The position numbers and the translations under genes were made by a program. From positions 53,211 through 73,210 of the IMG/VR virus record IMGVR_UViG_3300023179_005195: a DNA stretch of 20,000 bases; one strand, given 5' to 3'. The notes below the pieces were generated by a model. The model did not search any database, had not been told where the DNA came from, and saw only the letters and a list, made by a program, of their open reading frames with translations. This document shows, piece after piece, positions 807 to 20,000 of the stretch; within the stretch, counting starts at the first letter, position 1; each line of letters starts with the position of its first letter. This stretch comes from an uncultured virus (IMG/VR IMGVR_UViG_3300023179_005195). Its lineage: Duplodnaviria; Heunggongvirae; Uroviricota; Caudoviricetes.

Positions 807-860
807 TATATTTCCTTCCTTACGCGGTACGCTTAATTTGTCACCGTTATGTGACATTCA

Positions 861-868
861 TATTTATT
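861..868 (-). promoter_or_regulatory. Putative T4-like late promoter (AATAAATA) upstream of folE
   Basis: Minus-strand AATAAATA is 1 mismatch from TATAAATA and lies in the intergenic gap; the AT-rich background lowers specificity. Confidence 0.45.
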
Positions 869-875
869 TGTCAGA

Positions 876-1109: not shown

Positions 1110-1139
1110 ACTTGATTGTAACATCAAGTTATATGAGTG

Positions 1140-1853: not shown

Positions 1854-1861
1854 CAAAATAT

Positions 1862-4614: not shown

Positions 4615-5630
4615 CTATAGAAATCTTTTGATTGTAATTTGACCAAATAGTCATGATATTTTTTATATATCACTTCTTCTCCGTAATTATCTTCAGCAAA
4701 TTTTCTGCAAACATGTGGGTCAATAGTATGTATATTTTTCAAAGCATCTACGAACTCTCTCATTTCTCTACATCTAAATCCTGTAACACCATGTACTACT
4801 GTATCTATAAAACCACCCCAATCAGTGGTTATCGATGGTGTACCAGATAAGTATCCTTCAATTACCATATTTCCAAAAGGTTCTATATAGTATGTAGGTC
4901 CAAATATTGCTTTGGCATTTTTCATTAGTTCTTTTCTTTGTCGTGCGTCGCACAATCCTACACAGGTAACATGTTCGGGTATTTCTTTATATCCTAGATC
5001 TTCTAGAGAACCTGGTCCTGCTATTATTAATTTATCACCCGATAATTGAGTAGCCTGTATACAAACATTTATTCCTTTACTTTCTATTACTCTTCCAAAA
5101 TAAAGAACATAGTTTTCTTTTTTGGCTGTAAATTCAAATTCGCTTGGAGTAAATCCATTAGATATTACAGCATCAAACCAGCTAGGAGTCATTAACATCT
5201 TATGATGCCCATAGTACATATGTTGTACAGCATAAGAAGAGAACACTCTAAAAGGGGCAAATACAGCAGTATGATCATAGGCTATGTATGGTTCTACAAT
5301 AGTTAAGTCAATGTTCATTTCTGCTGCTTGCTGGTTGCCCCATCCATGAAAACACATGATCATGTCTCCAGGTTTTTTACGTTGTTGAATTTCTTTACCT
5401 GCGTTGACATTGTATACTCTCATGTTTTCCTGGTAGTCATTATAGATAAAAGGTAACGCCATGACAGTTTCGCAATTAACTTGGCAACCTGGTATTCCAT
5501 AATGTATACAATCCCAACCGTATTTCATCATGTTGTCAATAAACTTAACGGCTCCTACAGCAAACGCATCTATACGATTATCAATGTGTACAGGTTTGTC
5601 TGGAGCAGAAAGTATGTGTAATGTAGTCAT
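4611..5630 (-). CDS. Glycosyltransferase, GT-B fold (GT4 / Glycos_transf_1)
   Basis: YFGRVIESKG, LIIAG, EPFGNMVIEGYLSGTPSI (ExFGxxxxE signature) and VHGVTGF. Confidence 0.9.
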   Translation of the reverse strand: MTTLHILSAPDKPVHIDNRIDAFAVGAVKFIDNMMKYGWDCIHYGIPGCQVNCETVMALPFIYNDYQENMRVYNVNAGKEIQQRKKPGDMIMCFHGWGNQQAAEMNIDLTIVEPYIAYDHTAVFAPFRVFSSYAVQHMYYGHHKMLMTPSWFDAVISNGFTPSEFEFTAKKENYVLYFGRVIESKGINVCIQATQLSGDKLIIAGPGSLEDLGYKEIPEHVTCVGLCDARQRKELMKNAKAIFGPTYYIEPFGNMVIEGYLSGTPSITTDWGGFIDTVVHGVTGFRCREMREFVDALKNIHTIDPHVCRKFAEDNYGEEVIYKKYHDYLVKLQSKDFYR

Positions 5631-5664
5631 ATTATTAATTATCTTAATACTTAATTACAAAAAA

Positions 5665-5844
5665 TTATTCTGGTCTCCATTCTACTCGACCCCATTGATC
5701 GACTTTGGCAATACTAGAGATACGTTTGATTTCAACATAATCTTTTTTCTCAACAATTATAACGCCTCCTCTTTTTACTAGGTCTTCTATTTTTTGAGTA
5801 GCATTAAAATTTAACGGTTCAAATTTTTTTAATTTTTTATTCAC
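5665..5844 (-). CDS. Small hypothetical protein (59 aa), not in the ORF track
   Basis: Read manually: SD GGAG, GTG start, MNKKLKKFEPLNFNATQKIEDLVKRGGVIIVEKKDYVEIKRISSIAKVDQWGRVEWRPE-TAA; fills the gap between neighbours. Confidence 0.75.
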   Translation of the reverse strand: MNKKLKKFEPLNFNATQKIEDLVKRGGVIIVEKKDYVEIKRISSIAKVDQWGRVEWRPE

Positions 5845-5853
5845 AATATTCTC

Positions 5854-6456
5854 CTACATTATAGGCGCATTGCCGTTACGAAATCCTACATGCCCTCCTT
5901 GTGCTACAATCCTAGCATTAACTTCTTCAAGACTAATTGGAGCAAAGTCAATTTGTTCAACACTTACGTTGAAATAACGTGGGTCGATCTCGTCACCATA
6001 TTCAAATTCTCCGGACTTTCGATTAACACCCGTGATCTTCATCACACGGTTGGCGTGAAGGTGTCCGTGAATGTTGGTGCCAAACCTACCAAGACTTTCT
6101 GGATGAATGGGAACGTGACTAAAGATCATACCGTTCTTAACGTCAAAGGCACGAATGTCTCTAAAGTATTGGCTGTAGTCCTCCAGTTTAAAGATATCGT
6201 GGTTACCGCGTATAAGCACTTTGTCTCCATTAAGCCTACCAAGAATGTGTAGGAACTTGCGATTGATAACCACATCGCCACAGTGGTATACCTTGTCATT
6301 TGGACGAACACGTTCGTTCCAAGCCTTTACCATAAACTCGTCCATTTCTTCAGCACAACTGAAGGGACGAAGTGGTGAGCCGTCTGCCCGTTTGAATACG
6401 GTGCAGGTTTTCTCGTGTCCGAAATGTGTGTCACTGATAAAAAAAGTTGCTGGCAT
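5854..6456 (-). CDS. Calcineurin-like metallophosphoesterase
   Basis: Complete motif set: SDTHFGH, GDVV, GNHD, SHVP, HGHLH. Confidence 0.9.
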   Translation of the reverse strand: MPATFFISDTHFGHEKTCTVFKRADGSPLRPFSCAEEMDEFMVKAWNERVRPNDKVYHCGDVVINRKFLHILGRLNGDKVLIRGNHDIFKLEDYSQYFRDIRAFDVKNGMIFSHVPIHPESLGRFGTNIHGHLHANRVMKITGVNRKSGEFEYGDEIDPRYFNVSVEQIDFAPISLEEVNARIVAQGGHVGFRNGNAPIM

Positions 6457-6707
6457 TATTTTGCTCCTGATGATTTCTTCAATATATACATACTAACTAC
6501 TGGTCCTTCTATCTTTACCAAATCAGATGGATATCTATTGTATGTTAGCGATTGCCACTTTCTTGGAGGTTCTATTTTCTTAATTTTTACCATTTTTGGA
6601 TTTATTTTAACGACTATTCCCAAATCTAAAGAATTATGTAGTGAATATACTACACAATCGCCTATCTTGATTTCTTGGTCAAGTTTATCTCTAAATAATT
6701 CTGTCAT
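6456..6707 (-). CDS. Hypothetical phage protein (KOW/SH3-like)
   Basis: DKLDQEIKIGDCVVY...GIVVKINPKMVKI pattern; overlaps both neighbours. Confidence 0.7.
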   Translation of the reverse strand: MTELFRDKLDQEIKIGDCVVYSLHNSLDLGIVVKINPKMVKIKKIEPPRKWQSLTYNRYPSDLVKIEGPVVSMYILKKSSGAK

Positions 6708-7120
6708 TGAATTTCTTCTTTTGAGGTGCTGGGGAATTTACTACTACCATATCTTATTATTAACAAACTTATTGCTAAGATTAGGGTAGTACCGCCAAGG
6801 GCTATAATTTCAATTAGATTATCTTTACTATGGGCGACGATATCAACCAAATGCCGTGTCAACGCTGTTATAGCAATATAAATTAAAAATCTTACAGGCA
6901 TATGATTTGTTTTAAAATATATGCCAACCATAGCACCGATTTCAAGATAGATAAACATTAACAAAAGATCTTGTATACTAGCATGGTGTTTTTTGAACAT
7001 TTCAAAAAATTCCCATCCCGCTGCATAAACTGTAGCCGCACCGATTGAAAATAATGCCAATCTATGGAAAATTCCAACTAGATCATTACCTACTTTATCC
7101 AAAAGAGAAAATTGTTTCAT
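6704..7120 (-). CDS. psiE: Phosphate-starvation-inducible PsiE-family membrane protein
   Basis: Four hydrophobic segments, DLLLMFIYLEIGAMVGIYFKT and PVRFLIYIAITALTR signature; SD GGAGG 5 nt before ATG 7120. Confidence 0.85.
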   Translation of the reverse strand: MKQFSLLDKVGNDLVGIFHRLALFSIGAATVYAAGWEFFEMFKKHHASIQDLLLMFIYLEIGAMVGIYFKTNHMPVRFLIYIAITALTRHLVDIVAHSKDNLIEIIALGGTTLILAISLLIIRYGSSKFPSTSKEEIQ

Positions 7121-7136
7121 GTTCACCTCCTTGTTT

Positions 7137-7165
7137 ATTTTAACAGATTTTTCAAATTATGTCAA
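7137..7165 (-). promoter_or_regulatory. Sigma70-type promoter for the psiE-phosphoesterase unit
   Basis: TTGACA - 17 nt - TAAAAT on the minus strand, just upstream of the psiE SD. Confidence 0.8.
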
Positions 7166-7191
7166 GAAAAATGCAGGACTAGCCTGCATTT
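7163..7191 (-). terminator. Rho-independent terminator-like hairpin
   Basis: AAATGCAGG-CTAGT-CCTGCATTT followed by TTCTT on the minus strand, downstream of the small basic ORF. Confidence 0.7.
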
Positions 7192-7216
7192 AAGTTAATT
7201 TCATGTATGAATTACA

Positions 7217-7354
7217 CTATTTGCCCTGTCCTCGATATGATTTGTAACTTCTACGTTTAGACTTATTCATTGTACTTGTTTTTGGTGCAGACCCGCCTTG
7301 ACTGGTACTTTTTTTAATAGATTTCCTTTGACTTTGTTCTTTTGCTTTAGCCAT
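7217..7354 (-). CDS. Small basic protein (45 aa) ending ...YRGQGK, not in the ORF track
   Basis: Read manually: SD GGAG, MAKAKEQSQRKSIKKSTSQGGSAPKTSTMNKSKRRSYKSYRGQGK-TAG; resembles a conserved small hypothetical protein of T4-like aquatic phages (recalled, not searched). Confidence 0.8.
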   Translation of the reverse strand: MAKAKEQSQRKSIKKSTSQGGSAPKTSTMNKSKRRSYKSYRGQGK

Positions 7355-7372
7355 ATATAGTCTCCGTTTGTA

Positions 7373-8371
7373 TTATTTAAGCGATGATAAAATATTATGT
7401 AAACTTTGCTCAAATGTATACTGTGGTGTCCAGTTCAAATCATTACCAATGTTGTTTATACTAGGTACTCTATTACTAACATCTTCATACCCAGCACCGT
7501 AAAATTCTCCACTGCTTTTTACTTTAATCTGTACGTCAGTTACTAACTTGTGTTCCTTCATTTTTTCAATTAACATCATTGCCACTTCTCTCACACTGAA
7601 ATTGTTCCAAGGATTACCAACATTGTAAATTTTTTGGTTACTTATATCTTCATTTAATATCATAGCCTTTAGAGCTGAAACTCCGTCTCTTACATCAGTA
7701 AAACACCGTTTCTGATTGCCTCCATCTACTAAAGTAACTTCTCCTTTAATTTGAGCGTCGTTTATGAGTTGAGTAATTAGTCTACTAGATCCTTCTGAGC
7801 TTGACTCTAAACTGTCCAGGTATGGGCCTACCCAATTAAAAGGCCTGAACAAAGTAAAACGAAATGGTGACTTTTGATGCATGGCAAATACCACCCTGTC
7901 CAATAGCTGTTTACTACAGGCATAAATCCATCGGCTATATTTAATTGGGCCATAGGTTAAATCTGTGGTATTTTCGTCAAATGGTGCAATTCCTTTACCA
8001 TATACTTCGCTGGTGCTAGGAAAAATTACACGTTTGTTTAGTTTGTGACATAGTTTCAATATTCTTAAATTTTCTTCAAAATCTAGTTCAAATACATCCA
8101 TTGGACGTTCGACATATATTTTTGGTGTAGCAATGGCTACTAGCGGTAATACAATGTCTGTATCTTGTATTAAAGAATCTATGTATTGTCTAGACTGTAA
8201 AATATTAGCTTTATGAAACTGGAACCTGTTAGACGACGGAAGCATGTCTGTGCGCAGTTTATTGGCATCTATTCCTGTAATTGTATATTCTGCAAATTTT
8301 TCATCTTGTAGGATTGAATCAGTTAAATGATAGCCTATAAACCCATCAGACCCTAAAATTAATATTTTCAT
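7373..8371 (-). CDS. NAD-dependent UDP-glucuronic acid oxidase/decarboxylase (stand-alone ArnA C-terminal domain-like SDR)
   Basis: ILGSDGFIG Rossmann motif, PLVAIATP, FELDFEENL, FPSTSEVYG, RWIYACSKQLLDRV (YxxxK), FRPFNWVGP, SSRLITQ and DGGNQKRCFTD all match the ArnA decarboxylase domain. Confidence 0.85.
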   Translation of the reverse strand: MKILILGSDGFIGYHLTDSILQDEKFAEYTITGIDANKLRTDMLPSSNRFQFHKANILQSRQYIDSLIQDTDIVLPLVAIATPKIYVERPMDVFELDFEENLRILKLCHKLNKRVIFPSTSEVYGKGIAPFDENTTDLTYGPIKYSRWIYACSKQLLDRVVFAMHQKSPFRFTLFRPFNWVGPYLDSLESSSEGSSRLITQLINDAQIKGEVTLVDGGNQKRCFTDVRDGVSALKAMILNEDISNQKIYNVGNPWNNFSVREVAMMLIEKMKEHKLVTDVQIKVKSSGEFYGAGYEDVSNRVPSINNIGNDLNWTPQYTFEQSLHNILSSLK

Positions 8372-9088
8372 TTATAACCTTTCTAACTTTTCTTTTTTAT
8401 CATTTATTATATGCGAAATTTGTTCACCGAGACAATCTTCGTTGTTTACTACGGTCAAAACAGTTGAACCTCTTTTTAAAGAATTAGTATTTCCTAGTTC
8501 AATGGTATAATCTGCGGTAGTTGTTTCTATTTCTATAATGAGAGATCTAATCTTGCTCTTGATAATGTTGACCTGGCTGATTGAATCTATAACGTAATGT
8601 CCAAACTGTTCTACATATAAATCAGAATTATTATTTTTCAAATAATTATCTATAGAAACAATATGGTACATCCATTCTTGAGCTGAATGCTGTTCTACAG
8701 CCCAATTGTATTTTATTCCACAGATTGTTTCTTGTTGTTCTAAAAAGTCTGTAAATATTTCACTAAATCTGTATTGACTTAAAAAAAATACCGGAATATC
8801 TCCAACTAATTCTTTAGCCTTACGCCTTTCGTTGGCGGAAGCAAATCCTTTTTCTATATAAATTTCTTTAGGTAAATGTGGTAGGCAATCTTTTAAATCA
8901 TTTAAATGATTTTCAGTTTTAGAAAGGATAAACAAAGGATATCCCTGAGTAAATTTGGGATATTGAGATCTTGAAAATAACGCTAATCTGTCATCAGATC
9001 CGATATGAACTGGTAAAAGTCCATGGTTCTTAATCTTATTTCCTAATAGCCTGGCCCATTTGCCAGTGCCGTATACTACTGCATACAG
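8372..9088 (-). CDS. Gfo/Idh/MocA-like NAD(P)-dependent oxidoreductase, apparent CTG start
   Basis: Frame is open upstream of the ORF-track start (8935) to a CTG at 9088 preceded by AAGGAG. The extension adds the Rossmann motif AVVYGTGKWA, and the body has IYIEKG (EKP-like). Confidence 0.65.
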   Translation of the reverse strand: MYAVVYGTGKWARLLGNKIKNHGLLPVHIGSDDRLALFSRSQYPKFTQGYPLFILSKTENHLNDLKDCLPHLPKEIYIEKGFASANERRKAKELVGDIPVFFLSQYRFSEIFTDFLEQQETICGIKYNWAVEQHSAQEWMYHIVSIDNYLKNNNSDLYVEQFGHYVIDSISQVNIIKSKIRSLIIEIETTTADYTIELGNTNSLKRGSTVLTVVNNEDCLGEQISHIINDKKEKLERL

Positions 9089-10218
9089 ACAATTTCTCCT
9101 TTGTGTCCACGAGACATTAACTTATTCTTAATTTCTTCAAAGAAATTCCAAGCAGTAACAACTACAAGACAATCTTTATTCATTTTTTCAGGACTTTCTA
9201 TTACTATGTTTGTTCCTGGGAAATAAAATCCTTGTTTTAGTTCATTGTCATCGTACACCCCAAACAATGAATTTGAAACTAAATCTAACATGTATAAACT
9301 TGTTACAGCTTTAGCCGCTGCACCGTAGGCTACAAAAGGTCTTCCTAAAATAATAGAGTTCATGTTATTCTTACGTTGAACTATATAATTTTCTACCTTC
9401 GTACGTTGTATATCTATGTTTACAGGTTCAAATGTTGTAATAGATGGTTTATCTACTTTTCTAGCAATTAATCTAAAACTTAAACCATGTGAGTTTATAA
9501 GCTCAAATTCTTCAACAGTCAGGCCATGTTTTGCTAATAATGTGCCAAATGAATGGGGGCTATAATAGTCAATATGCTCATGATAAACATTATCTAAATG
9601 TGTTCCTTGTAATATAGCATCACGATGGCCGCATTCGACCATTAGAACTCCGCCATCCTTTAACGATCGTGATATGCCCTTTATTACATCGTCTGTATCT
9701 GGAATATGCGCCAATACATTATTAGCACAAACTAAATCAAATTTAGCAGTCCATTCACGTTTATTGACCAGTGCAGTGGTAAAAAACCCGTTTACCAATG
9801 GCATGTTATTTTCTACGTATTCATTTACAAGATATGCACTCGGCTCAACTCCTTGGACCTGGCATCCTTTTTCTTTAAATTGGAGTAACAAGAATCCATC
9901 ATTGCTGCCGATTTCTAAAACTTTACTATTATTAGAAAGATTGAATTTTTCAAAAGCATAATTTGCCAAAGCGGTAAAATGATTTCTAAATGATTTAGAA
10001 ACCGCAGATTTATATCTGTAACTGGCAAAAACCTTGTCTGGATCAGGTGCTGCTGCCAATTGCAAATGACCACACTGTTCACAGTAGTTTAAATCTAAAG
10101 GATACTTTGTGAAATTCGGTATCTCAAACAATGCATTAGCTACAGGACTAGATGGCAATGATAACCAGGGATTAATATTATTATTGCCGCAACATCTACA
10201 AGATTGGTACTTAAACAT
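9076..10218 (-). CDS. NDP-hexose C-methyltransferase (3-C-methyltransferase family)
   Basis: Zn ligands CRCC and CEQCGHLQL, VLEIGSNDG, ANNVLAHIPD, VYHEHIDY, HGLSFR, AYGAAAKA, DDNELKQG, AWNFFEEI. Likely start MFKYQ at 10218. Confidence 0.9.
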   Translation of the reverse strand: MFKYQSCRCCGNNNINPWLSLPSSPVANALFEIPNFTKYPLDLNYCEQCGHLQLAAAPDPDKVFASYRYKSAVSKSFRNHFTALANYAFEKFNLSNNSKVLEIGSNDGFLLLQFKEKGCQVQGVEPSAYLVNEYVENNMPLVNGFFTTALVNKREWTAKFDLVCANNVLAHIPDTDDVIKGISRSLKDGGVLMVECGHRDAILQGTHLDNVYHEHIDYYSPHSFGTLLAKHGLTVEEFELINSHGLSFRLIARKVDKPSITTFEPVNIDIQRTKVENYIVQRKNNMNSIILGRPFVAYGAAAKAVTSLYMLDLVSNSLFGVYDDNELKQGFYFPGTNIVIESPEKMNKDCLVVVTAWNFFEEIKNKLMSRGHKGEIVCMQ

Positions 10219-10597
10219 ATTGCTCATGTAACGGACGAATTCTTACAATGTCTTCATCATAACTTACAGCATCACGCTTATGTTCACTAATAACAACCAT
10301 TACAGATGGACTTGTAAATACCATTTCATGGTCGATTAATGGTCCAGTTTTAAACAACTCCCCTGCAACTATACGTTCTTTATGAATTTTTGTTTCACCG
10401 TGGTCACGCCAATAATAATCCATATCTCCGCTGACTAAGAAACAAACATGAGTGTCTGTTTTATGATAATGGTTGGCCCTAATGGCACCTGTTTCAGACC
10501 AAATCATTTGTACATTGGCCATGTCATGTACTATAGGTAAAATTTTTCCTCTAGCATCGGTATATCCGAGTTCTAGTGGTAATTTATGAGTTGGCAT
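10211..10597 (-). CDS. Cupin-fold protein (sugar 3,4-ketoisomerase / RmlC-like)
   Basis: DARG, IRANHYHK...H and distal DHEM cupin motifs; adjacent to NDP-sugar enzymes. Confidence 0.7.
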   Translation of the reverse strand: MPTHKLPLELGYTDARGKILPIVHDMANVQMIWSETGAIRANHYHKTDTHVCFLVSGDMDYYWRDHGETKIHKERIVAGELFKTGPLIDHEMVFTSPSVMVVISEHKRDAVSYDEDIVRIRPLHEQYV

Positions 10598-10637
10598 TTT
10601 TTATCCTTGTTAATTAAGTATGTATTTAATAAACTTC

Positions 10638-10997: not shown

Positions 10998-11076
<79 letters not shown>

Positions 11077-11084
11077 TGTAAAAC

Positions 11085-11174
11085 TGGTGCCTAGGGCCGG
11101 ACTCGAACCGGCATGCCCCTTTCGGAAGCGAGGGATTTTAAGTCCCTTGTGTCTACCTATTTCACCACCCAGGC
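11085..11174 (-). tRNA. tRNA-Leu (anticodon UAA)
   Basis: GCCTGGG / CCTAGGC-A-CCA acceptor, AGGGA-CTTAAAA-TCCCT anticodon arm, long variable arm, GCCGG-TTCGAGT-CCGGC T arm. Confidence 0.95.
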
Positions 11175-11301: not shown

Positions 11302-11330
11302 ATTATATTAGTTTGTTGCTAGTATGTCAA
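11302..11330 (-). promoter_or_regulatory. Perfect consensus sigma70 promoter for the tRNA cluster
   Basis: TTGACA-TACTAGCAACAAACTAA(17)-TATAAT; the -10 box ends 8 nt before the first tRNA. Confidence 0.9.
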
Positions 11331-11339: not shown

Positions 11340-12116
11340 TTAATATTTTGAATTATATAGGCTCTTTTTATTACCTGTAAGTATAACAATTAAATAAATT
11401 ACATATCCGCTAATATCTATTTCCCACCATTTTCTTTGAAAACTGTAATGCCAGGGTTCTGCATGATGATTATTATGCCATCCTTCACCCCAAGTAATTG
11501 CACTTACCCACCAGGTATTTTTACTTCCTTCGCCTGTTTCGTAATTTTGGTATCCAAACATATGGTTAGCGTAATTGCTTATATTACTTGCCCAAATTTG
11601 AAAACAAACAGGAACAATAAAGGCAAACAAAAAAAGTTTGTAATTAATAGCCAATAATAAGAATGCCCAAATTAAAAGTATTAGATTATAATACTGATGC
11701 AGTATAATATGAAATTTATCTCTAAGTAATAATTTAGCATCTAGAGGATTAAATTTATAATTATAATTTGTGAGCAACAATTTGGGCCCGAGTAAATGTG
11801 GGCTATGCGGATCCTTATCTTTGTCGCTAAATTTGTGATGAACATTATGCACGGCTAACCAACCTATAGTTGATCCTGTTCCTCCAAGAGCACCAAACAT
11901 ACTAAAAAGATATTCAAAAACTTTAGGCATTTTGAATGCCTTATGAGAAAGATAACGATGGTAAGTTATTGTAATACCTAAGCAACCTGTTAAAAAATAA
12001 ACAAAAAAAGATAAAAGCCACCAATAAAGATTAAATTGTAATGTCATAAGGTACAATGTAATCACAGTACTGATTAATTGTAATATTTTAATGCTCGAAA
12101 CGTTTGAATATAACAT
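11340..12116 (-). CDS. Membrane fatty acid desaturase (Delta-9 / OLE1-DesC-like) #1
   Basis: His boxes HRYLSH, HNVHH and GEGWHNNHH; DKDPHSP; WWEIDISG; transmembrane segments. Confidence 0.92.
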   Translation of the reverse strand: MLYSNVSSIKILQLISTVITLYLMTLQFNLYWWLLSFFVYFLTGCLGITITYHRYLSHKAFKMPKVFEYLFSMFGALGGTGSTIGWLAVHNVHHKFSDKDKDPHSPHLLGPKLLLTNYNYKFNPLDAKLLLRDKFHIILHQYYNLILLIWAFLLLAINYKLFLFAFIVPVCFQIWASNISNYANHMFGYQNYETGEGSKNTWWVSAITWGEGWHNNHHAEPWHYSFQRKWWEIDISGYVIYLIVILTGNKKSLYNSKY

Positions 12117-12124
12117 AGTCTATC

Positions 12125-12152
12125 AATAAATATATAATAAATTTTATTTATA
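12125..12152. promoter_or_regulatory. Putative paired T4-like late promoters in the divergent intergenic gap
   Basis: Exact TATAAATA on the minus strand (12145-12152, towards desaturase #1) and AATAAATA on the plus strand (12125-12132, towards 12163). Confidence 0.5.
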
Positions 12153-12162
12153 AGGACAAAAT

Positions 12163-12543
12163 ATGAGCTTTTGGGTTTATAAAACATTTACAATAATTCA
12201 TGATACTAACCTTTTAAGTGAGGATGCTCAACTTACACTTTTTAATTTAACACCATACGTTTTTAAACCAGGTAATGTACCTCTTTATCAAGAAATAGTT
12301 AAAGAATATGTAAATGATGGTCGACAAATAGGATTCAAACGTTGGTTAAATGGAAATATTCTTATTTCAGAACGAATATATGATACTCAAGAAACCGCAT
12401 TAGAATGTAAAAATAGACTAGATGTTCTTTACAATGAAAATACTATTTTTCATAATGAACAGGGGTATTCAAATAAATTTACTTTTACTTTCGAAATTGT
12501 TGAAATTTCCGAACAGGATTTCATAAACAATTATGCACGTTAA
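12163..12543 (+). CDS. Hypothetical protein (126 aa), first gene of the desaturase operon
   Basis: SD AAGGA before the ATG; overlaps the next gene; no recognisable motif. Confidence 0.75.
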   Translation: MSFWVYKTFTIIHDTNLLSEDAQLTLFNLTPYVFKPGNVPLYQEIVKEYVNDGRQIGFKRWLNGNILISERIYDTQETALECKNRLDVLYNENTIFHNEQGYSNKFTFTFEIVEISEQDFINNYAR

Positions 12544-13312
12544 TACTCTTACTAAAATTCGTTCATTACTATTAACCACCCACATACTTTTTATTTCAAG
12601 TTTTTTTATCGTTAATGTTGAATGGTATTATTTCCTTTTCACATTTTTATCATATATTTTAATAGGAAAAATCGGAGGTGAAATAGGATTTCACAGATTA
12701 TTTGCCCACCGTAGTTTTAAAACTACAAAGACCAAGGAACGAATCCTACTAATTTTAGGTAGTTTAAATTTTGTAGGAAGTAGTTTATCTTGGTGTGGAG
12801 TTCACAGAATTCATCATAAAACAGCAGATACTGATAAGGATCCTCACAGTCCATATTTTAATAAACTTTGGAAAGTTTGGTTAGTCGTTTGGAAACCTTT
12901 TATTGTAAGTCCAAAAAACATTTCCGATTTGATTAAAGATAAATGGCATCTCTTTATTCACAAAAATTATTTTATATTAAGTTATACAACAATTGTTTTG
13001 TTGGCATTAATTAATTATAAGTTTTTAATTTTTGTGATTATTATTCCATCTGTGATACAATTTCATGTTGGTGCTTATCTGATAGATATAGTTTGTCACA
13101 AATACGGATATAGGAATTATGACATTCTAGACCGAAGTAGAAATAATCTGTTAGTTAATATTGTTACAGGAGGTAGTGGTCTACATAATAATCATCATGC
13201 CCAACCAGGTAATCCATACTTTAATCATAAACCAGGAGAATTTGATTTACCTGGATTAGTAATTAAATACCTTTTAATAAAAAATGAAGTTGAAAACAAT
13301 AAACAATCTTAG
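12533..13312 (+). CDS. Membrane fatty acid desaturase #2
   Basis: HRLFAH, HRIHH, DKDPHSP and GSGLHNNHH; transmembrane segments. Confidence 0.9.
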   Translation: MHVNTLTKIRSLLLTTHILFISSFFIVNVEWYYFLFTFLSYILIGKIGGEIGFHRLFAHRSFKTTKTKERILLILGSLNFVGSSLSWCGVHRIHHKTADTDKDPHSPYFNKLWKVWLVVWKPFIVSPKNISDLIKDKWHLFIHKNYFILSYTTIVLLALINYKFLIFVIIIPSVIQFHVGAYLIDIVCHKYGYRNYDILDRSRNNLLVNIVTGGSGLHNNHHAQPGNPYFNHKPGEFDLPGLVIKYLLIKNEVENNKQS

Positions 13313-14075
13313 ATTTATTCCGTTTATGGAATTAGGCATTCAATTTGATATTAATAGTATAAAATCTGAAGTTTTAAAAAATAGAACTTGGCATAATTAT
13401 CATCCGCCATATTTTCAATTGACACCATTCCTTGAGGAAATTCACAAATCGTATAAACAATGTGCTCTTACAACAATTTATAAGTCAGGAAATTCTTCTA
13501 TTGTAAGGGAACACTTTGCTAGATGGAAAAATAAAGATAATAACGAGTTAGAAGATTTTTACGAATGGCCCGTTGAAGATCAAAGATGGTATCCTACAGA
13601 AGTAACCAAAAATTTTCCATTATTAATGGATTTGGTTCTTAGTATAACAGATAAACCTTTATTGGTCAAAATTGTAAAATCTGGGCCAGGACACGCTCTA
13701 GGTTGGCATAGTCATCAAAATGACGAATTAATAAAAAAATATAATAAACCCGAACAGTGTATAATTCATATACCAATTATTGCTGATAAAAATGTAGCGC
13801 ATATTGTTTCTAAAGAGGTCCATAGCGATAGATATTTTTTTGAAGAATTATCGTATTATAAAAATAATTCGAAATATTTTGTTGCTAATTTTACATGCGG
13901 TAAAATTTGGTACTTAAACGGTTATCATCAACATGCTTATAAAAATTATAGTGATAAAGAACGAATTGATATTTTAATTTATAATGACGTAAGAGATAAT
14001 TCTACTTTAGAAAAGGTAATAAAAAAGCTATCCTGGCATACCAAGGTCCTATTATTCCATGTTAAAATTTTATAA
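13284..14075 (+). CDS. Asp/Asn beta-hydroxylase-like Fe(II)-dependent oxygenase (DSBH fold)
   Basis: LGWHSH, IIHIPI, GKIWYLNGYHQHAYKN and ERIDIL resemble the AspH/LpxO-type jelly-roll pattern. The C-terminus is uncertain (see frameshift finding). Confidence 0.65.
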   Translation: MKLKTINNLRFIPFMELGIQFDINSIKSEVLKNRTWHNYHPPYFQLTPFLEEIHKSYKQCALTTIYKSGNSSIVREHFARWKNKDNNELEDFYEWPVEDQRWYPTEVTKNFPLLMDLVLSITDKPLLVKIVKSGPGHALGWHSHQNDELIKKYNKPEQCIIHIPIIADKNVAHIVSKEVHSDRYFFEELSYYKNNSKYFVANFTCGKIWYLNGYHQHAYKNYSDKERIDILIYNDVRDNSTLEKVIKKLSWHTKVLLFHVKIL

Positions 14076-14823
14076 ACCAAATATGGATATACAATTTAAG
14101 ATACTAATTGTTTTCCATCACCTTATAATAATTTTATTATTTTATATAGATTGGAATTATAAAGATTTATTATTAACTATACTAGGTTGGATCTTATTTG
14201 GAAAGATTGGAGGCGAAATAGGTTATCATAGATTATGTGCCCATAGAAGTTTTAATACTCAAAGATGGAAAGAAATAATTTTGATATTATTAGGATCATT
14301 AAATTTTCTAGGAAGTAGTTATGGATGGGTAGGAACACATAGAATACATCATAGATATTCAGATACAAGAAAAGATCCTCAAAGTCCACTCTATAATAAA
14401 TGGTATGATGTTTGGTTGGTAAATTGGCCTATGGTTAAATTTTCTCCTAAAATAATTTCAGACCTGGCCAAGGATCCATTTCATAATTTCTTACATAGAC
14501 ACTATTTAGAATTTGTTATAATTGTATATAGCATCACCGCTTTAATTGATTTAAAGTTGGCTATATTTTTGTTTAGTTTAAGTGCGGTATGGACTTTTCA
14601 TACTAGTAGTTTATTGATAGACATTGTATGCCATAAATGGGGATACAGGAATTTTGATACAAACGATAATAGTAAGAATAATACTTTAGTAAATATCTTA
14701 ATGCTTGGAAGTGGACTGCATAATAATCATCATGCCAATAGCCAAAGTCCTTACTATGCAGTTAAAAAATTTGAATGGGACTTACCAGGTCTTTTTATAA
14801 AGTATTGTTTGCAAAAAAAATGA
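14059..14823 (+). CDS. Membrane fatty acid desaturase #3
   Basis: HRLCAH, HRIHH, KDPQSP and GSGLHNNHH; closely related to desaturase #2. Confidence 0.9.
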   Translation: MLKFYKPNMDIQFKILIVFHHLIIILLFYIDWNYKDLLLTILGWILFGKIGGEIGYHRLCAHRSFNTQRWKEIILILLGSLNFLGSSYGWVGTHRIHHRYSDTRKDPQSPLYNKWYDVWLVNWPMVKFSPKIISDLAKDPFHNFLHRHYLEFVIIVYSITALIDLKLAIFLFSLSAVWTFHTSSLLIDIVCHKWGYRNFDTNDNSKNNTLVNILMLGSGLHNNHHANSQSPYYAVKKFEWDLPGLFIKYCLQKK

Positions 14824-15410
14824 AAACATTCTCTATTTTAGATTTACCAGAATTGCCAAAAGATATAATCGATATCATCGAAGATTCTAAAACAGGATCT
14901 CTCAAACAAAAGCTATCTCAACAAAAAATAAAGCAACTTGATAATACAGAAGTAGATGATGCAATTTATTCTAGATGGCCGCTAACTGATAGGTATACAC
15001 AATTTATAAATAATTTAATTCCTGAATTAGAAGGATTAACTTTAACTATAGGTTTTCAAAGTATAAAAGCAAATGGCAATAATATCTGCCAGTTACATCC
15101 TCATACAGACGGAAAAACCCGTGGTCCATTTTGTATTAGTTTTTTGCTAACCTCCGGTGGAACAAACGTTGAAACTATTTGGTGGCAGGAAAATGGTAAA
15201 GAACTAATTAGGGATCCATGGTCTCATTGTTTTGACCTAAATGTATTAAGTAAGGTAAATTCTACAATTTTTCCAAGCCACCGATGGAATATTATGCGTA
15301 CAGATTTGATACATAGTGTACATAATATTAATAACGATAGAAGAGCATTTACGATTGGGTTCTTCGACGAAAGCATTTTTAATATAATTATAAGCAAATA
15401 CGGTGTATGA
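14820..15410 (+). CDS. Putative Fe(II)/2OG-dependent oxygenase
   Basis: HxD (LHPHTD), distal His (LIHSVHN) and Arg (RRAFTIG). Likely start MKTFS at 14820 with an ATGA overlap. Confidence 0.6.
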   Translation: MKTFSILDLPELPKDIIDIIEDSKTGSLKQKLSQQKIKQLDNTEVDDAIYSRWPLTDRYTQFINNLIPELEGLTLTIGFQSIKANGNNICQLHPHTDGKTRGPFCISFLLTSGGTNVETIWWQENGKELIRDPWSHCFDLNVLSKVNSTIFPSHRWNIMRTDLIHSVHNINNDRRAFTIGFFDESIFNIIISKYGV

Positions 15411-16222
15411 ACATATACAAATTAAGAACCATTTGGGCATTAGGTTTGCTTTCTTGGGGGTTTAGTTTAATATATCCATTCTTTAGTGGTGAATGGTTGT
15501 GGACTATTTTAGCATTTTTGATTAGTAAAATTGTAGTGATTCCTGCTAATCATATAGCTATGCATAGATATTTCGCTCATAGATCATTTGTTACCACTAA
15601 AAAGAAACATGTTTTTTTAACTTGGGCAAGTGTGTTGATTGGTGCAGGAAGTCCTATATTATATGCTACTAGTCATAGACATCACCATAGATATAGTGAT
15701 GAAGATCTTGATATTCATAGTCCAAAAAATAGTATAAAAGAAAGCTTAGGATTATGGGAAATTAAACCTTTTGAATGGTTTAATAAAATTAAACAGGTAA
15801 GAATATTACCTAAGGATTTAATACGAGACCCTACAATTAAATTTGTACATCATAATTATTTTAAGATATGGGCTTGTCTGATTATATTTTCATTAGTGTT
15901 AGGACTAATAGATTGGCATATTCCTATTTTTATATTATTTGCTCCTTTGGGTTGGTATATATTCGGAAGCGGTGTGTTTGTCACCACTTTAAGCCATGTA
16001 CCAACAAGTATTTCATATAGAAATTTTGAAACTTCTGACAAAAGTCAAAATAATAAATGGATACATTGGTATACTCTAGGTGAAGGATTACATAATAATC
16101 ATCATGCTTATCCAAGCGAATATAATCAGGCTATGAAAAAAGGGGAGTTTGATTTTTCCGGTTGGTTAGTTAAGAAATATTTTATAATTGATAGAAATGA
16201 TCCTAGAGCTTATACAGTTTAA
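15407..16222 (+). CDS. Membrane fatty acid desaturase #4
   Basis: HRYFAH, HRHHH, DLDIHSP, GEGLHNNHH and GEFDFSG. Confidence 0.9.
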   Translation: MNIYKLRTIWALGLLSWGFSLIYPFFSGEWLWTILAFLISKIVVIPANHIAMHRYFAHRSFVTTKKKHVFLTWASVLIGAGSPILYATSHRHHHRYSDEDLDIHSPKNSIKESLGLWEIKPFEWFNKIKQVRILPKDLIRDPTIKFVHHNYFKIWACLIIFSLVLGLIDWHIPIFILFAPLGWYIFGSGVFVTTLSHVPTSISYRNFETSDKSQNNKWIHWYTLGEGLHNNHHAYPSEYNQAMKKGEFDFSGWLVKKYFIIDRNDPRAYTV

Positions 16223-16236
16223 TATTTCAAGACTAA

Positions 16237-17460
16237 ATGACATTTTATAAAAAAATGGATGAAATTGCTATCATTGGATTAGGTATAGTCGATGCCTTAG
16301 GGGAAGATATTAATATTAATTGGAATAGGTACTTACAGGCTCAATCTCCAATATCCGAAATTAAAAATTTTGATAAAAAAACTTACCCTGCTATCAAAAT
16401 AAATGGTGCTTTTCAAATTAACGATGCTGAAATAAAACTAGACTTTTTAGATAATACAGAACAAAAAAATCTAGATAGATATTCTATAATTGGTTTATAC
16501 TCAGCTAATAGGGCTGTGCTTGATGCCAATATTATGAATAAAACTAATACTGGTGTTATATTTGGGTCGTTAGGTGGTCCTCAAAAACTAATATTAGAGA
16601 ATGTTTCTAAATTAATTGACAATAAAAGGCTAAGCCCTAGACAGGCTTTAGCAGCTCAGAGAGACAATTTAGGTTATTTAATTTGTAAAAAGTTTGGATT
16701 CAAAGGTATAAATCTATGTATGACTAGTGCCTGTGCTACTGGAATACTCATGATAGATTATGCTGTAAGATTACTACAGGCAGAAGTTTATGATCAAATT
16801 CTTGTAGGTGCGTGTGATGTAATGGTAGATCCTATTGATATTTTTATGTTTCAATCCATAGGAGCTTTGGATTTAAGAGAACCGCCTATATCATCACCGT
16901 TTGATAAAGATCGTAAGGGTTTTGTAATGGGTGAAGGTGCTTGTTCATTGGTTTTGAAGTCATTGCCTAAAGCGGAAAAAGATGGAGATAATGTTCTAGC
17001 CGTGATTAAATCTATTGGTTTCGCAACAGAATTATATCACGAAACCGGAATGGACCCAGCAGCTATAGGAGCTAGACAAAGTATAGATATGGCACTTAAA
17101 TACGCTAATTTACAAAGAGATCAGATATCTATAATAAGTTGTCATGCTACAAGCACGCCGAACGGTGATCCATCAGAATATAATATTATAAAGGAGTATT
17201 TTCCTAATTCTGCTTTAATGGCTTTAAAGGCTAATATTGGTCATACTATGTCTGCCTGTGGATTAATTGAATTAGCATATCTTATTCAATCTATGAATAT
17301 GAATAAAATAGGAAGAATTGCAAATTTAAAAAATCCAATCGATATATTAATATCTGATAATCATAAAAGGGAATTTCCAAATTTTAAATATGGCATAAAA
17401 AACAGTTTTGGTTTCGGTGGTAAATGTGCTGCTGTTGTAGTGGAGAAATTTGATGGATAA
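16237..17460 (+). CDS. fabF: Beta-ketoacyl-ACP synthase (FabF/FabB-like)
   Basis: Catalytic Cys-His-His triad (SACATG, CHATST, GHTMSA), PFDKDRKGFVMGEG and NSFGFGG. Confidence 0.9.
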   Translation: MTFYKKMDEIAIIGLGIVDALGEDININWNRYLQAQSPISEIKNFDKKTYPAIKINGAFQINDAEIKLDFLDNTEQKNLDRYSIIGLYSANRAVLDANIMNKTNTGVIFGSLGGPQKLILENVSKLIDNKRLSPRQALAAQRDNLGYLICKKFGFKGINLCMTSACATGILMIDYAVRLLQAEVYDQILVGACDVMVDPIDIFMFQSIGALDLREPPISSPFDKDRKGFVMGEGACSLVLKSLPKAEKDGDNVLAVIKSIGFATELYHETGMDPAAIGARQSIDMALKYANLQRDQISIISCHATSTPNGDPSEYNIIKEYFPNSALMALKANIGHTMSACGLIELAYLIQSMNMNKIGRIANLKNPIDILISDNHKREFPNFKYGIKNSFGFGGKCAAVVVEKFDG

Positions 17461-18070
17461 AGATGATTTTTCAATTAAAATTTTAGACATTGATGATTTA
17501 GACGCATATATAGAGTTGTTTAATAATAGTGACAAGTTTTTAAATCAAAGAAAAACTATCGACTTTTCTAATTTTATGATTGAAAAATTTACTAATGACT
17601 TCGAAGAAAAACAAAGAATAATTGTTGGTGCGTATTATAATAATAAGTTAGTATGTTCTGTTAACGGATATTTTCCAGACAATATACAATATTGGTACGC
17701 ACATAGACATTTTTCCAATTTCGAAAAAAAAGATTTAGGTAATTATAAATTAAGTATGAATATATACGGTAAGTGCATGTATATTCTAATGAATCATGGA
17801 GAAAAGAACGGATATTATAGTTTTTATAGTAGACGACCTTTAAAACATCAACAGGCGCTAGATAAAATTTGGAAAAAATTTAATGAAGAAGGTATTATAG
17901 AAAACAAATATAACTGTTTTTACGAAGCTGTATATGCAGTTGGAGAAACTTGTAGATCCCCTCTTCATAAATTTTATTTTCCCGAACATAAGAAAACTTT
18001 CGAAGTAGAAACAATTATTTGTCTGTTTGCTCTAAAACAAAAATATAGGCTTAAATTGTTAAATTTATAA
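17453..18070 (+). CDS. Hypothetical protein, possible GNAT-fold acyltransferase
   Basis: IKILDIDDLDAYIELF and IIVGAYYNNKLVCSV resemble the GNAT beta1-alpha1 and beta2-beta3 elements; SD GGAG; overlaps the fabF stop. Fold is inferred. Confidence 0.5.
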   Translation: MDKDDFSIKILDIDDLDAYIELFNNSDKFLNQRKTIDFSNFMIEKFTNDFEEKQRIIVGAYYNNKLVCSVNGYFPDNIQYWYAHRHFSNFEKKDLGNYKLSMNIYGKCMYILMNHGEKNGYYSFYSRRPLKHQQALDKIWKKFNEEGIIENKYNCFYEAVYAVGETCRSPLHKFYFPEHKKTFEVETIICLFALKQKYRLKLLNL

Positions 18071-18071: not shown

Positions 18072-18953
18072 CTAATTTTCTATGTTTTTGATTTGTTTTA
18101 TTATTTCTCTTTTAAAATAGACATCATTATCGTCTTTCAATATAAAGATACCTTGATCTAACAATGCAGTTTTTACTTTATCAGAATTCAAAATCCTAGA
18201 TAAAGCTTGTTTTTGCGTTTGAATTGCACTTTCATTTATACTTTCATTCGCTACAAATCCAAAAATTGTATCTGTTACTACGAACTCATCAATAACTGGT
18301 ATATTAGGAAAATATATTTTATTAGAAAAGCTAGCAACTAATCTTATAGAATTTGAATCAATTTGACTCTTGACAGCCGTATATGGGGCTATTACATATG
18401 AAATATGTTTTCCTATAAGGTCTTTTAGAGCAGGACCAACTCCATTATATTCTATATTTTTAGACTTGAAAGCCTTTAAAAATATCAAAAACTGATTTAT
18501 AACATAAGAATTTCCTAAAGCACCACCACCTAAATTAATTTCCTTATATTTTATTTCATGAATAATTTCATCTATATTCTTAAAATTATCTTTGTATGTA
18601 ACTAAAACCATAGGGCTACTGCCGATTAATTTAACATAGGTTAAATTTTTAGAATGATAATTTACAACATTTGAAGTCAATTTAGATGAAAAAACAAGTT
18701 GCGATTGAGACACCAAACATAGTGTTAAAGGATCTGCATTTTTAATGCATTCATTTAAAGCAATTACTCCTCCTGCTCCAGGTTTTGTGACTAATATTGA
18801 ATTTATTCCTTCATCTCCGAATCCTTTTTGTATAATAGTCCCTATCAGGTATTGTCCTCCACCAGGAGGAAATCCTACTAATATTTTAAACTGTTCATTT
18901 GCAAAAATGTTTGTAGAAAAGAAAAGTAACAGTGTTGTTATTATAATTTTCAT
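18072..18953 (-). CDS. Tripartite tricarboxylate transporter substrate-binding protein (TctC/Bug-like)
   Basis: Signal peptide, ILVGFPPGGG, KPGAGGVIA and YNGVGPALKDLIGKHI. Confidence 0.8.
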   Translation of the reverse strand: MKIIITTLLLFFSTNIFANEQFKILVGFPPGGGQYLIGTIIQKGFGDEGINSILVTKPGAGGVIALNECIKNADPLTLCLVSQSQLVFSSKLTSNVVNYHSKNLTYVKLIGSSPMVLVTYKDNFKNIDEIIHEIKYKEINLGGGALGNSYVINQFLIFLKAFKSKNIEYNGVGPALKDLIGKHISYVIAPYTAVKSQIDSNSIRLVASFSNKIYFPNIPVIDEFVVTDTIFGFVANESINESAIQTQKQALSRILNSDKVKTALLDQGIFILKDDNDVYFKREIIKQIKNIEN

Positions 18954-19999
18954 AATTTATACCAAGGTGTAAAATAAGTTTTAAATTTGTTTAACTCCTT
19001 GAAGAAGTATTTTTCATCTAAAACTGTTTTCCAATCTGTTAAATGACTATTATATTTTTCGATCACATTTGAAAAATCTGCACTATTTATGTATATCTTA
19101 TCCCGTGACCTTCCAACTTGGTTATACGGTTGAGGTTTATTAACTTGAAATGTATCATTATTCCAAGTTGAATATATTAAAGGAATAACAGCTTTTCGAT
19201 AGGCATCATATATTAAATGTAAGTTTTTTTGATCTATATTTTTAATATCCATCATTTTTTTATAAGTTTCATTTTTTGAAAAGAAATCATATACTACTTG
19301 TGCCTGTTTAAATGCTATCTCGGGCATATCAGGAGTCCAGTAAAATAATTCAACCAAGCTAAAGTTTTTAAGGTCTTTTTTAATACATCTCGATGCAGAA
19401 GAGATTTCTTGGTCTGAGAATAGCACAAATCCTTCATTATTTTTAATAACTACTATAGGTTTATCTATTCCAAAAATAGAGCAGGTTTTTGTTCCAGAAT
19501 TTAAATTTCTGTCAATCGTACTTGAATATGAGGATTGTCTTAACAATTCAAACAAACCTATAAAGTTATTCGATTGTAAAAACATATCTTCATGTATAAT
19601 CTTGCTTAAATTTTTTTCAAAAATATCCTCTACATTTATTCTAATGTTTGGATAGTTTTTTGCAATATACTCTAAAGAGGGTTTAATCACATAATCCCAC
19701 TCGCTAAAGATATTTTCAGCATTTTTGTTATTTTTATTAGGCGTATAAATCTTTTCATCAACTGACGCACTTCTCTGAACATAAATTTCATCTAGTCTTA
19801 TATTATTATTCAAAAAGGTCATTAAGACATTATGGCTGTCTGCACCTCCACTATAGTTTAGAATTATGTAGTCATATTTTTCTCTTAGTTGCAAAGCCCG
19901 ATTTTTATAGATAGTTTCCAAATTAATATTTTCTAAAGTATGCATTTTAGTTTTAGAAAAATTATTCCATACATTATTATAAAAATGCCAGCTTATCTC
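18950..19999 (-). CDS. PP-loop (adenine nucleotide alpha hydrolase) protein, 5'-truncated by the window edge
   Basis: LNYSGGADSHN PP-loop, FGIDKP and ELFYWTPDMP. The frame stays open from the ORF-track start (19945) to the window edge (EISWHFYNNVWNNFSKTK-M), so the true start is probably outside the window. Confidence 0.75.
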   Translation of the reverse strand, partial: EISWHFYNNVWNNFSKTKMHTLENINLETIYKNRALQLREKYDYIILNYSGGADSHNVLMTFLNNNIRLDEIYVQRSASVDEKIYTPNKNNKNAENIFSEWDYVIKPSLEYIAKNYPNIRINVEDIFEKNLSKIIHEDMFLQSNNFIGLFELLRQSSYSSTIDRNLNSGTKTCSIFGIDKPIVVIKNNEGFVLFSDQEISSASRCIKKDLKNFSLVELFYWTPDMPEIAFKQAQVVYDFFSKNETYKKMMDIKNIDQKNLHLIYDAYRKAVIPLIYSTWNNDTFQVNKPQPYNQVGRSRDKIYINSADFSNVIEKYNSHLTDWKTVLDEKYFFKELNKFKTYFTPWYKL

Positions 20000-20000
20000 C

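Follow-up and report, generated by a model that had tools for sequence, protein, structure and literature searches.

The final 20,000 nucleotides of an uncultured virus record in IMG/VR (IMGVR_UViG_3300023179_005195, positions 53,211 to 73,210; this whole stretch is called the window below) hold a compact module of about 7 kb, in which four membrane desaturases of the stearoyl-CoA desaturase (SCD) type are encoded side by side with two oxygenase-fold proteins, a ketosynthase (KS) and a GNAT-like protein. We predict, with moderate confidence, that freshwater jumbo myoviruses use this module to lengthen and repeatedly modify fatty-acyl chains during infection. Most likely, the predicted pathway elongates acyl chains, desaturates them several times and probably oxygenates them, with the phage running the chemistry and depending on the acyl carrier protein (ACP) of the host. 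So far, viral desaturases have been treated as single fluidity genes borrowed from a host; here, a diverged set of them is tied to a KS and to oxygenases. If these genes cooperate, phages would run a multi-step lipid chemistry of their own, beyond tuning the lipids of the host.

The window could be followed past its end, because a second record, IMGVR_UViG_3300022752_003639 (G001; 138,457 bp, CheckV completeness 35%), contains a 99.9%-identical copy of the stretch and reaches 2.6 kb beyond the window end and 62.7 kb in the opposite direction. The record of the window itself is 73,210 bp long, with a CheckV completeness of 17%. In G001, the module continues with a radical SAM gene, a fifth desaturase (des5) and a 181-aa protein with no assigned family. 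Thus, the gene content first proposed for the cluster (11340-18070) was right, and its proposed end at 18070 was not, given that a PP-loop gene and these three genes lie beyond it.

A preliminary description of the window had counted four desaturases with intact histidine boxes, and the profile searches bear this out. The four proteins score 58.7-74 bits against a Pfam FA_desaturase gathering cut-off of 29.7 bits, and the fifth copy scores 69.2 bits. The HRxxxH, HxxHH and HNNHH boxes and one further histidine are invariant across the five paralogs, and all nine His positions are kept in 80 out of 80 related desaturases. A profile made from the five paralogs matches mouse SCD1 (E 9e-35) with its His boxes aligned, mouse and human SCD1 both coming at E ~1e-34, and the SCD1 core alignment spans positions 17-246 of the 255 in the profile. 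The catalytic core and all His ligands of SCD1 (4ymk, 4zyo) are thus aligned; unlike SCD1, the phage proteins are about 255-270 aa long and do not have its N- and C-terminal extensions. By Kyte-Doolittle hydropathy, each paralog has hydrophobic blocks around residues 6-50 and 137-190, as for the two helix pairs of SCD, the four helices not being separated in all of them. The sole NCBIfam match is DesA, at 55-84 bits against a 400-bit equivalog cut-off. By their sequences, all five paralogs are di-iron desaturases of the Delta9-family, SCD type, an assignment that predicts their regiospecificity at most.

The five paralogs share a mutual identity of only 30-34%, yet each of them has its own orthologue in related phages. 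Overall, these orthologues are 47-89% identical to their window or G001 counterparts: 69-79% for des1 in the relatives L118-L121, 59-86% for des2, 75-83% for des3 and 70-89% for des4. In a tree of 80 desaturases, every window paralog falls in its own orthogroup with SH-aLRT (Shimodaira-Hasegawa-like approximate likelihood ratio test) support of 97-100 (98 for des1, 100 for des4); the des2 and des3 orthogroups are sisters, and 11 cellular sequences from eight phyla form a single clade (support 100). The family is also large, since des3 has 543 homologues, mostly unnamed and about 250 aa long. This deep paralogy, together with the separate conservation of each copy, argues that the copies have different roles. 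For the same reason, a dedicated multi-step module, as the preliminary description had proposed, is favoured over one fluidity gene.

The second core component is the KS, whose Cys-His-His triad was said to be intact. In fact, Cys166, His303, His336 and also Lys331 are invariant across 30 clade members, and judged by these residues the enzyme is catalytically intact. It resembles FabF/KAS II in its full-length alignment and in this Cys-His-His-Lys set, and its best match in the PDB is FabF 1ox0 (E 5e-48). Unlike FabF/KAS II, it reaches only half the equivalog score (TIGR03150, aligned over the full KS length: 242.6 against a cut-off of 493.75), belongs to a clade of its own and sits in desaturase arrays rather than in a fab operon. 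About 30 clusters are at least 50% identical to it, all on metagenome or viral contigs, and everything else is at most 39% identical, the named bacterial FabF proteins lying at 31-36%. On sequence grounds, we consider the KS a FabF-type enzyme of a distinct virus-associated clade, not an orthologue of the housekeeping FabF; given the 39% ceiling outside this clade, it is not a recent copy of a host fabF.

Is the assembly conserved? Using an oxygenase A profile, we drew four relatives from metagenomes: L118, L119 (on the same contig as L018/L097), L120 and L121. The window and these four diverged lineages (30-89% identity) share one gene order: a divergent des1, the 126-aa gene (not in L121), des2, oxygenase A, des3, des4, KS and the GNAT-like gene. 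The co-occurrence of genes for which the preliminary description had called is therefore conserved. In L118 and L120, des5 and then the 181-aa gene follow. The array can be longer still, with a sixth desaturase ahead of the KS in L118, L120 and L121 and seven desaturases in L119. The genes for the TctC-family binding protein and for the 290-aa radical SAM protein are particular to this phage.

To place the module among viruses and cells, we scanned both with the five-paralog profile. In viral contigs, 569 stretches were confirmed and the best 80 loci, which include the near-identical contig and several near-duplicates, were examined up to 10 kb on each side: 37 of the 80 have at least two desaturases, 43 have a single one and nine have a KS. 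In a collection with one genome per prokaryote species, 602 stretches were confirmed, and the best 80, at 31-38% identity and from Acidobacteriota, Planctomycetota, Cyanobacteriota and others, have exactly one desaturase each; both oxygenases and the GNAT-like and PP-loop genes are missing from all of these 80, and a KS is present, at a distance, in two. Starting from the KS instead, a clade profile found 21 viral loci, and in 12 of the 20 other than the window's own, one to five desaturases stand beside the KS. The profile was needed to find them: a single-sequence KS scan of viral contigs found the near-identical contig only.

Distant viral modules share a recurring theme, in which fatty-acid-synthase parts, desaturases and iron/oxygen enzymes come together. 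L098 and L102 encode FabI/FabG-type short-chain dehydrogenases/reductases (SDRs), L092 has an ACP and a FabA-like dehydratase, L115 has two 2OG-FeII_Oxy_5 proteins, and L098 also has a flavin monooxygenase and a rubrerythrin. A 519-aa radical SAM protein occurs in L121, with 25-27% identical matches in L118-L120. Three phage contigs have, next to their desaturase modules, a 268-aa protein whose N-terminal domain is of the Rieske [2Fe-2S] type, at 44-64% identity (L121 17736-18542, L092 19694-20503, L119 17620-18411); it is a candidate electron donor or oxygenase, and no copy was found in the 138 kb available for this phage. We also observed a KS directly followed by five tandem desaturases in L102 (5590-10660) and in L116 (10001-14671), with an enoyl-ACP-reductase-type SDR soon after in L102.

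These loci bear directly on the main rival explanation, according to which the genes are a toolbox of independent membrane-fluidity functions. Each desaturase would then make ordinary monoenes for a different lipid class, chain length or host, the KS would do no more than promote the lengthening of unsaturated chains, in the manner of KAS II during homeoviscous adaptation, and the oxygenases, the GNAT-like protein and the PP-loop protein would be unrelated neighbours. All paralogs do belong to the Delta9/SCD family, more than half of the viral loci examined have only one desaturase, and oxygenase B, TctC and radical SAM genes come and go between lineages. Yet five to seven paralogs per genome, in orthogroups of their own and with a mutual identity of ~30%, exceed what redundancy would require; oxygenase A and the GNAT-like and PP-loop genes hold their place in all five lineages; the KS was not recently taken from a host fabF; and no cellular locus among the 80 carries a desaturase array. 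We thus find the fluidity toolbox doubtful, and polyyne chemistry, a non-fatty-acid substrate and a cellular origin less likely again.

The toolbox also has precedents, because viral desaturases that occur singly are established as fluidity genes or have been proposed as such. In the passages that treat them, the viral fatty acid desaturases (vFADs) of cyanomyophages are DesC-type Delta9 desaturases that act on C16 and come in two genotypes (PMC5776448; Roitman et al. 2017), and viral desaturase genes from Arctic sea ice and cryopeg brine are proposed as aids against cold and salt stress (PMC7300359). The likeness to the cyanophage enzyme is clear from what is said of it there: it, too, is a Delta9-family membrane desaturase with three His boxes, encoded by an aquatic myovirus (PMC5776448). 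However, vFAD is there tied closely to host desC clades and makes Delta9 C16:1 (PMC5776448), whereas the cellular enzymes nearest to the module desaturases are at most 38% identical (best 80). Set apart by description, the present module also differs in having five to seven deeply diverged paralogs per genome, together with a KS, oxygenases and a GNAT-like protein, and in belonging to a jumbo phage.

A closer precedent comes from freshwater myophages of SAR11, the pelagimyophages. One sentence singles out fabF, a stearoyl-CoA desaturase and a 2OGFeDO protein as genes unique to them (PMC7029224; Zaragoza-Solas et al. 2020); these three enzyme types, and the habitat, are shared with the present module. 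The passage in question makes no statement on clustering, copy number, conservation or function (PMC7029224). Unlike these T4-like phages, compared here by description and not by sequence, the phage of the window is nearest to jumbo phages of the Atu_ph07/Phosso type. In the parts consulted of open-access papers and bioRxiv preprints, no multi-desaturase or KS-desaturase phage cluster was described, only single genes and the sentence in PMC7029224. Thus, the suggestion that the system is undescribed stands for the clusters as far as that literature goes, and falls for the enzyme trio, which had already been mentioned. GenBank phages offer no close counterpart: blastn with the 6.7-kb stretch gave no match, and tblastn gave nothing close. 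The KS matches (at most 31% identity) lie largely on unannotated contigs filed as phage and resemble host fabF/fabB, and the desaturase matches (at most 28%) come from three records, two of Acinetobacter phage MD-2021a and one of Pelagibacter phage Mosig.

How would such a pathway hold its substrate? The preliminary description saw no ACP, acyl-AMP ligase or thioesterase in the window, and this now extends to 138 kb. Six-frame searches of the 73-kb and 138-kb records (17% and 35% of the genome), with E values of up to 1, found no PP-binding (ACP) or AMP-binding (ligase) domain; general Pfam matches of the records' proteins include no thioesterase family; and neither rubredoxin nor a 2Fe-2S ferredoxin was found in six frames of G001. 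Complete genomes are informative here. Among three records with a KS and desaturases and a CheckV completeness of 100%, two have no ACP, namely G002 (364 kb, KS 40% identical) and G004 (222 kb); the third, G003, has two PP-binding matches, one of them directly beside a KS that is 26% identical to that of the window. With two of three complete records lacking an ACP, the use of a host ACP is the simplest reading, and it probably applies to this phage.

The same results weigh on another explanation, namely that the module is a polyyne or alkyne toxin pathway like those of caryoynencin, protegencin and jamaicamide, in which the desaturases jointly make triple bonds on a carrier-bound fatty acid. 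SCD-family desaturases can evolve acetylenase activity. At least three clustered desaturases are a hallmark of bacterial polyyne clusters, in which, in the portion of the account that we draw on, three desaturases work jointly as a triad (PMC9828172; Kim, Ishida and Hertweck 2022); here there are five, and the cay and pgn clusters resemble the module in having several clustered SCD-like desaturases that presumably act on one acyl chain. As ligase-ACP examples, we took the Burkholderia gladioli BSR3 plasmid loci L217 and L218, annotated with a ligase, one or more ACPs, two desaturases each and a thioesterase or hydrolase. Their desaturases belong to the same broad SCD-like family and are ~25-30% identical to des2. 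In the tree, however, these four Burkholderia proteins (used in place of verified CayB, CayC, CayE and JamB) form a clade of their own (SH-aLRT 99), sister to the cellular Delta9 clade (97), with no phage paralog inside. Polyyne clusters also come without a KS, and the fatty acyl-AMP ligase, dedicated ACP, thioesterase and rubredoxin that mark them were not found in 138 kb, nor an ACP in two of the three complete jumbo-phage records. Desaturases aside, the one partner gene of such clusters with a counterpart here is a ferritin-like gene ~55 kb from the module. We consider a polyyne pathway very improbable; the likeness to caryoynencin clusters that was noticed at first does not amount to membership among them.

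The two oxygenases were recognized by fold rather than by family. Neither protein has any Pfam, NCBIfam or PHROG match, even in a permissive Pfam scan, and 2-oxoglutarate (2OG)-oxygenase Pfam matches are lacking in all 62 oxygenase B family members. AlphaFold2 (AF2) models searched with Foldseek tell more. For oxygenase A (predicted local distance difference test, pLDDT, 88.5), the best match is L-proline cis-4-hydroxylase 4p7x (E 5e-9), followed by proline 3-hydroxylase, AspH and AlkB homologues; a PDB profile search gave proline 3-hydroxylase as its best match, at E 0.12. For oxygenase B (pLDDT 92.3), the matches are PHD2 and proline 3-hydroxylase at E ~1e-5 (best 7e-6). The template modelling (TM) scores of both are modest (0.43-0.51). 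According to these models, both proteins carry the double-stranded beta-helix fold of 2OG/Fe(II) oxygenases. Thus, the claim of two oxygenases stands at the level of fold, with no sequence-family match behind it.

The two proteins are not detectable paralogs (BLASTP E > 5), and they share an invariant His...Arg spacing. In oxygenase B, whose family counts 306 representatives at E<=1e-3, H110-x-D112, H180 and R189 are invariant in 62 sequences. Oxygenase A has 21 unnamed homologue clusters and a variant motif of candidate iron ligands, in which both histidines of H142-S-H144, D147, H217 and R227 are invariant. It occurs in all five lineages. Two details of the gene models deserve mention. Compared with G001, the window lacks one nucleotide of an A-run near 14020, which alters the last ~13 residues of oxygenase A; the G001 tail matches the family consensus, so that the 17-nt overlap of this gene with des3 in the window is due to the indel. 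The difference in length of the A-run could be an assembly error or a real variant. For oxygenase B, an internal Met at 14820 is probably the true start, given an orthologue of 196 aa.

Two further proteins travel with the desaturases. The 206-aa protein after the KS has no Pfam (even with E up to 5), PHROG or NCBIfam match. In the ESM Atlas, all 10 structural neighbours listed for its model are GNAT acetyltransferases (TM 0.62-0.66), with a pLDDT of only 0.58: the GNAT likeness claimed at the outset is thus kept by its structural neighbours, with no sequence family to back it and a low-confidence model. The gene follows the KS in all five lineages (32-62% identity) and adjoins desaturases without a KS in L019, L020 and L094. 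The PP-loop protein is 379 aa long in G001 and 331 aa in the window. It belongs to an unnamed, virus-restricted family with S80, G81, G82, D84 and S85 invariant in 13 sequences, and profile searches included, it has no significant Pfam or PDB match. Its gene stands beside the module in all five lineages and in nine of the 80 desaturase-centred viral loci. The nearest named ESM Atlas cluster is QueC in 38% of its members (score 0.93). Given the GTP cyclohydrolase I and PTPS/QueD-like genes on the contig, we considered a QueC/QueE (7-deazaguanine) role for the PP-loop and radical SAM proteins; we rejected it because there is no QueC Pfam match and because the PP-loop gene travels with desaturases in relatives. 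The radical SAM protein lends this role no support either, its best NCBIfam rows being TrsS, MoaA and Tes, all far under their cut-offs.

How could these parts work together? The KS would condense malonyl-ACP with acyl-ACP on the host ACP, and host FabG, FabZ and FabI would complete each cycle. The desaturase paralogs would differ in position or substrate and act in series or in parallel, to yield chains with two or more double bonds, the electrons being supplied by a host donor (in some relatives, the recurrent phage Rieske protein might serve). One or both oxygenases may then put oxygen on the chain or on its carrier, and the GNAT-like and PP-loop proteins may pass the product to an amine-bearing acceptor, or finish it there. 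The end point could be a host membrane lipid, a free lipid or the virion. Of these steps, the hydroxylation of the chain and its transfer to an acceptor, both already proposed in the preliminary description, gained little from the analysis, since the folds are nearest to prolyl hydroxylases and the GNAT model is of low confidence; they stay conjectural.

Several observations weigh against this picture of a joint pathway. First, no ACP, acyl-activating enzyme, thioesterase or electron carrier was found in the 138 kb at hand, about a third of the genome. Second, the oxygenase folds best match prolyl/aspartyl hydroxylases and AlkB-type enzymes, not known lipid hydroxylases; aquatic phages often carry 2OG oxygenases for unrelated reasons, and oxygenase B occurs in only two of the five lineages (the window and L119). 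Third, the GNAT label comes from a low-confidence Atlas model whose neighbours are ordinary acetyltransferases. In addition, the four relatives are fairly close kin, so that their synteny is not fully independent evidence, and the cellular comparison covers the best 80 of its 602 confirmed matches only. Finally, several desaturases at one locus may just as well act in parallel, each on a different lipid of the host.

A bolder version of the joint pathway, which we consider unlikely, would give jumbo phages their own aerobic route to polyunsaturated, oxygenated acyl chains, otherwise a trait of eukaryotes and cyanobacteria. The KS would alternate with position-specific desaturases that radiated inside viruses, and a GNAT-type N-acyltransferase and a PP-loop adenylating enzyme would hand the product to an amine, giving an aminolipid or an N-acyl signal. 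If so, a KS with a desaturase array would be the hallmark of a class of viral clusters for lipid biosynthesis that is widespread and undescribed. More generally, a joint action of the genes would bear on how the membranes of infected lake cells change and on which lipids enter the food web. The module is also a new source of desaturases, possibly with unusual positional specificity, and since it would need only a host ACP and reductant, heterologous expression is feasible.

The viral origin of the contig, which the preliminary description wished to see confirmed, is well supported. On the two records we find structural genes (baseplate hub, T4-type baseplate wedge, tail-fibre protein, gp25, tail-collar protein and virion structural protein), replication and lysis genes (endolysin, clamp loader and family-B DNA polymerase), and genes for PhoH, ClpP, a Lon-like protease, thymidylate synthase, peptide deformylase and a 4469-aa ORF. 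The DNA polymerase is nearest to those of Sinorhizobium phage Phosso (50%), Agrobacterium phage Atu_ph07 (46%) and 350-380-kb Escherichia jumbo phages (44%); overall, its relatives at 44-50% identity are jumbo phages of 350-490 kb. This kinship fits the genome size of ~400 kb that CheckV implies. Freshwater, lake-water or aquatic metagenome runs from four studies, one of which may be the source of the record, contain 0.91-0.99 of the sampled words of the stretch, and no RNA run is listed among the sequencing runs that contain it. From the phage genes, the polymerase kinship and the freshwater runs together, we take the contig to be a fragment of a freshwater jumbo myovirus of roughly 400 kb.

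Could the contig nevertheless be cellular, or a chimera miscalled as viral, and the cluster bacterial? IMG/VR calls can be wrong, and short desaturases with 47% identity do occur on contigs of 0.8-1.6 Mb. But phage genes (gp25, baseplate hub, tail fibres, polymerase, clamp loader and endolysin) flank the module on both sides of the same 138-kb contig, two assemblies agree at 99.9% over 73 kb, and the best 80 cellular loci, at most 38% identical, are without the module. A cellular origin is barely credible in our view.

The positions and the order of the genes, with a plus-strand operon and a fourth desaturase transcribed divergently, agree with the ORF list and are collected in the table below.

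Features of the window, in window coordinates, with the evidence for each assignment
Feature	Position	Strand	Evidence
Sugar/glycan island	117-10600	-	
tRNA-Met(CAT) and tRNA-Leu(TAA) genes	10998-11174 and 11302-11330	-	
des1, 258-aa SCD-type membrane desaturase, divergent	11340-12116	-	PF00487, 58.7 bits
126-aa soluble protein, no family match, first plus-strand operon gene	12163-12543	+	
des2, 259-aa SCD-type desaturase	12533-13312	+	PF00487, 69.1 bits
Oxygenase A, predicted 2OG/Fe(II)-oxygenase fold	13284-14075	+	AF2 model and Foldseek
des3, 254-aa SCD-type desaturase	14059-14823	+	PF00487, 74 bits
Oxygenase B, predicted 2OG/Fe(II)-oxygenase fold	14775-15410	+	AF2 model and Foldseek
des4, 271-aa SCD-type desaturase	15407-16222	+	PF00487, 64 bits
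KS, FabF-type decarboxylating beta-ketoacyl synthase	16237-17460	+	PF00109 and PF02801
206-aa GNAT-fold-like protein; its gene overlaps the 3' end of KS	17450-18070	+	ESM Atlas model
TctC-family periplasmic solute-binding protein	18072-18953	-	PF03401, 66.8 bits
PP-loop (SGGxDS) ATPase-like protein, 331-aa ORF running to the contig end	18950-19945	-	Invariant motif

Upstream of the module, the island listed first in the table encodes GTP cyclohydrolase I, several methyltransferases, GT2 and GT1 glycosyltransferases, DUF6445, a metallophosphoesterase, PsiE, an NAD-dependent epimerase/dehydratase and a protein of the NDP (nucleoside diphosphate)-hexose C-methyltransferase type. This neighbourhood suggests yet another explanation: the desaturase-like enzymes may act, with the products of the island, on something other than ordinary acyl substrates, such as the acyl or alkyl parts of an envelope glycolipid or lipid A, or another hydrophobic substrate. 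In its favour, ~10 kb of glycosyltransferases, sugar epimerases/dehydratases and methyltransferases abut the module, a GDP-mannose-dehydratase-type gene lies beside a desaturase in L098, and the DesA scores fall far below the equivalog cut-off. However, both the sequence signature and the SCD1 alignment mark the enzymes as Delta9-family desaturases of acyl chains. The partner that recurs beside them is a KS of the fatty-acid type, joined in distant modules by FabI/G-type, FabA-like and ACP genes, and the island lies on the opposite strand, with two tRNA genes in between. We regard such a substrate as improbable, and return to the acyl-chain pathway as the preferred reading.

The remaining observations concern the surroundings of the module. 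The two tRNA genes lie between the sugar island and des1, with a perfect TTGACA-17-TATAAT just upstream of them on the same strand; a scan of this AT-rich stretch for promoters and terminators gave nothing above the shuffled expectation. The 126-aa protein has no Pfam, PHROG or NCBIfam match and no hydrophobic segment. Its orthologues (40-47% identical) keep the same position in L118, L119 and L120, and none was detected in L121. At the other edge, the TctC gene lies outside the conserved core and is absent from the relatives. A binding protein of the DctP family stands at the module edge in L121 (2125-3069). TctC and DctP families bind carboxylates, which is notable beside 2OG-dependent enzymes.

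An alignment of the window with G001 (MAFFT) shows 67 differences, 62 of them within 19000-20000, in the 5' part of the PP-loop gene. The two PP-loop proteins are 93% identical, and this cluster of differences could be strain microdiversity, recombination or an artefact of the assembly end. Farther away on G001, the 4469-aa ORF occupies 109430-122839 on the minus strand. Elsewhere, this record encodes ClpP and the Lon-like protease, Bax1-I, the ferritin-like protein, a carbamoyltransferase, the PTPS/QueD-like gene, and a sugar cyclase like dehydroquinate (DHQ) synthase that adjoins an SDR and a flavin adenine dinucleotide (FAD) oxidoreductase.

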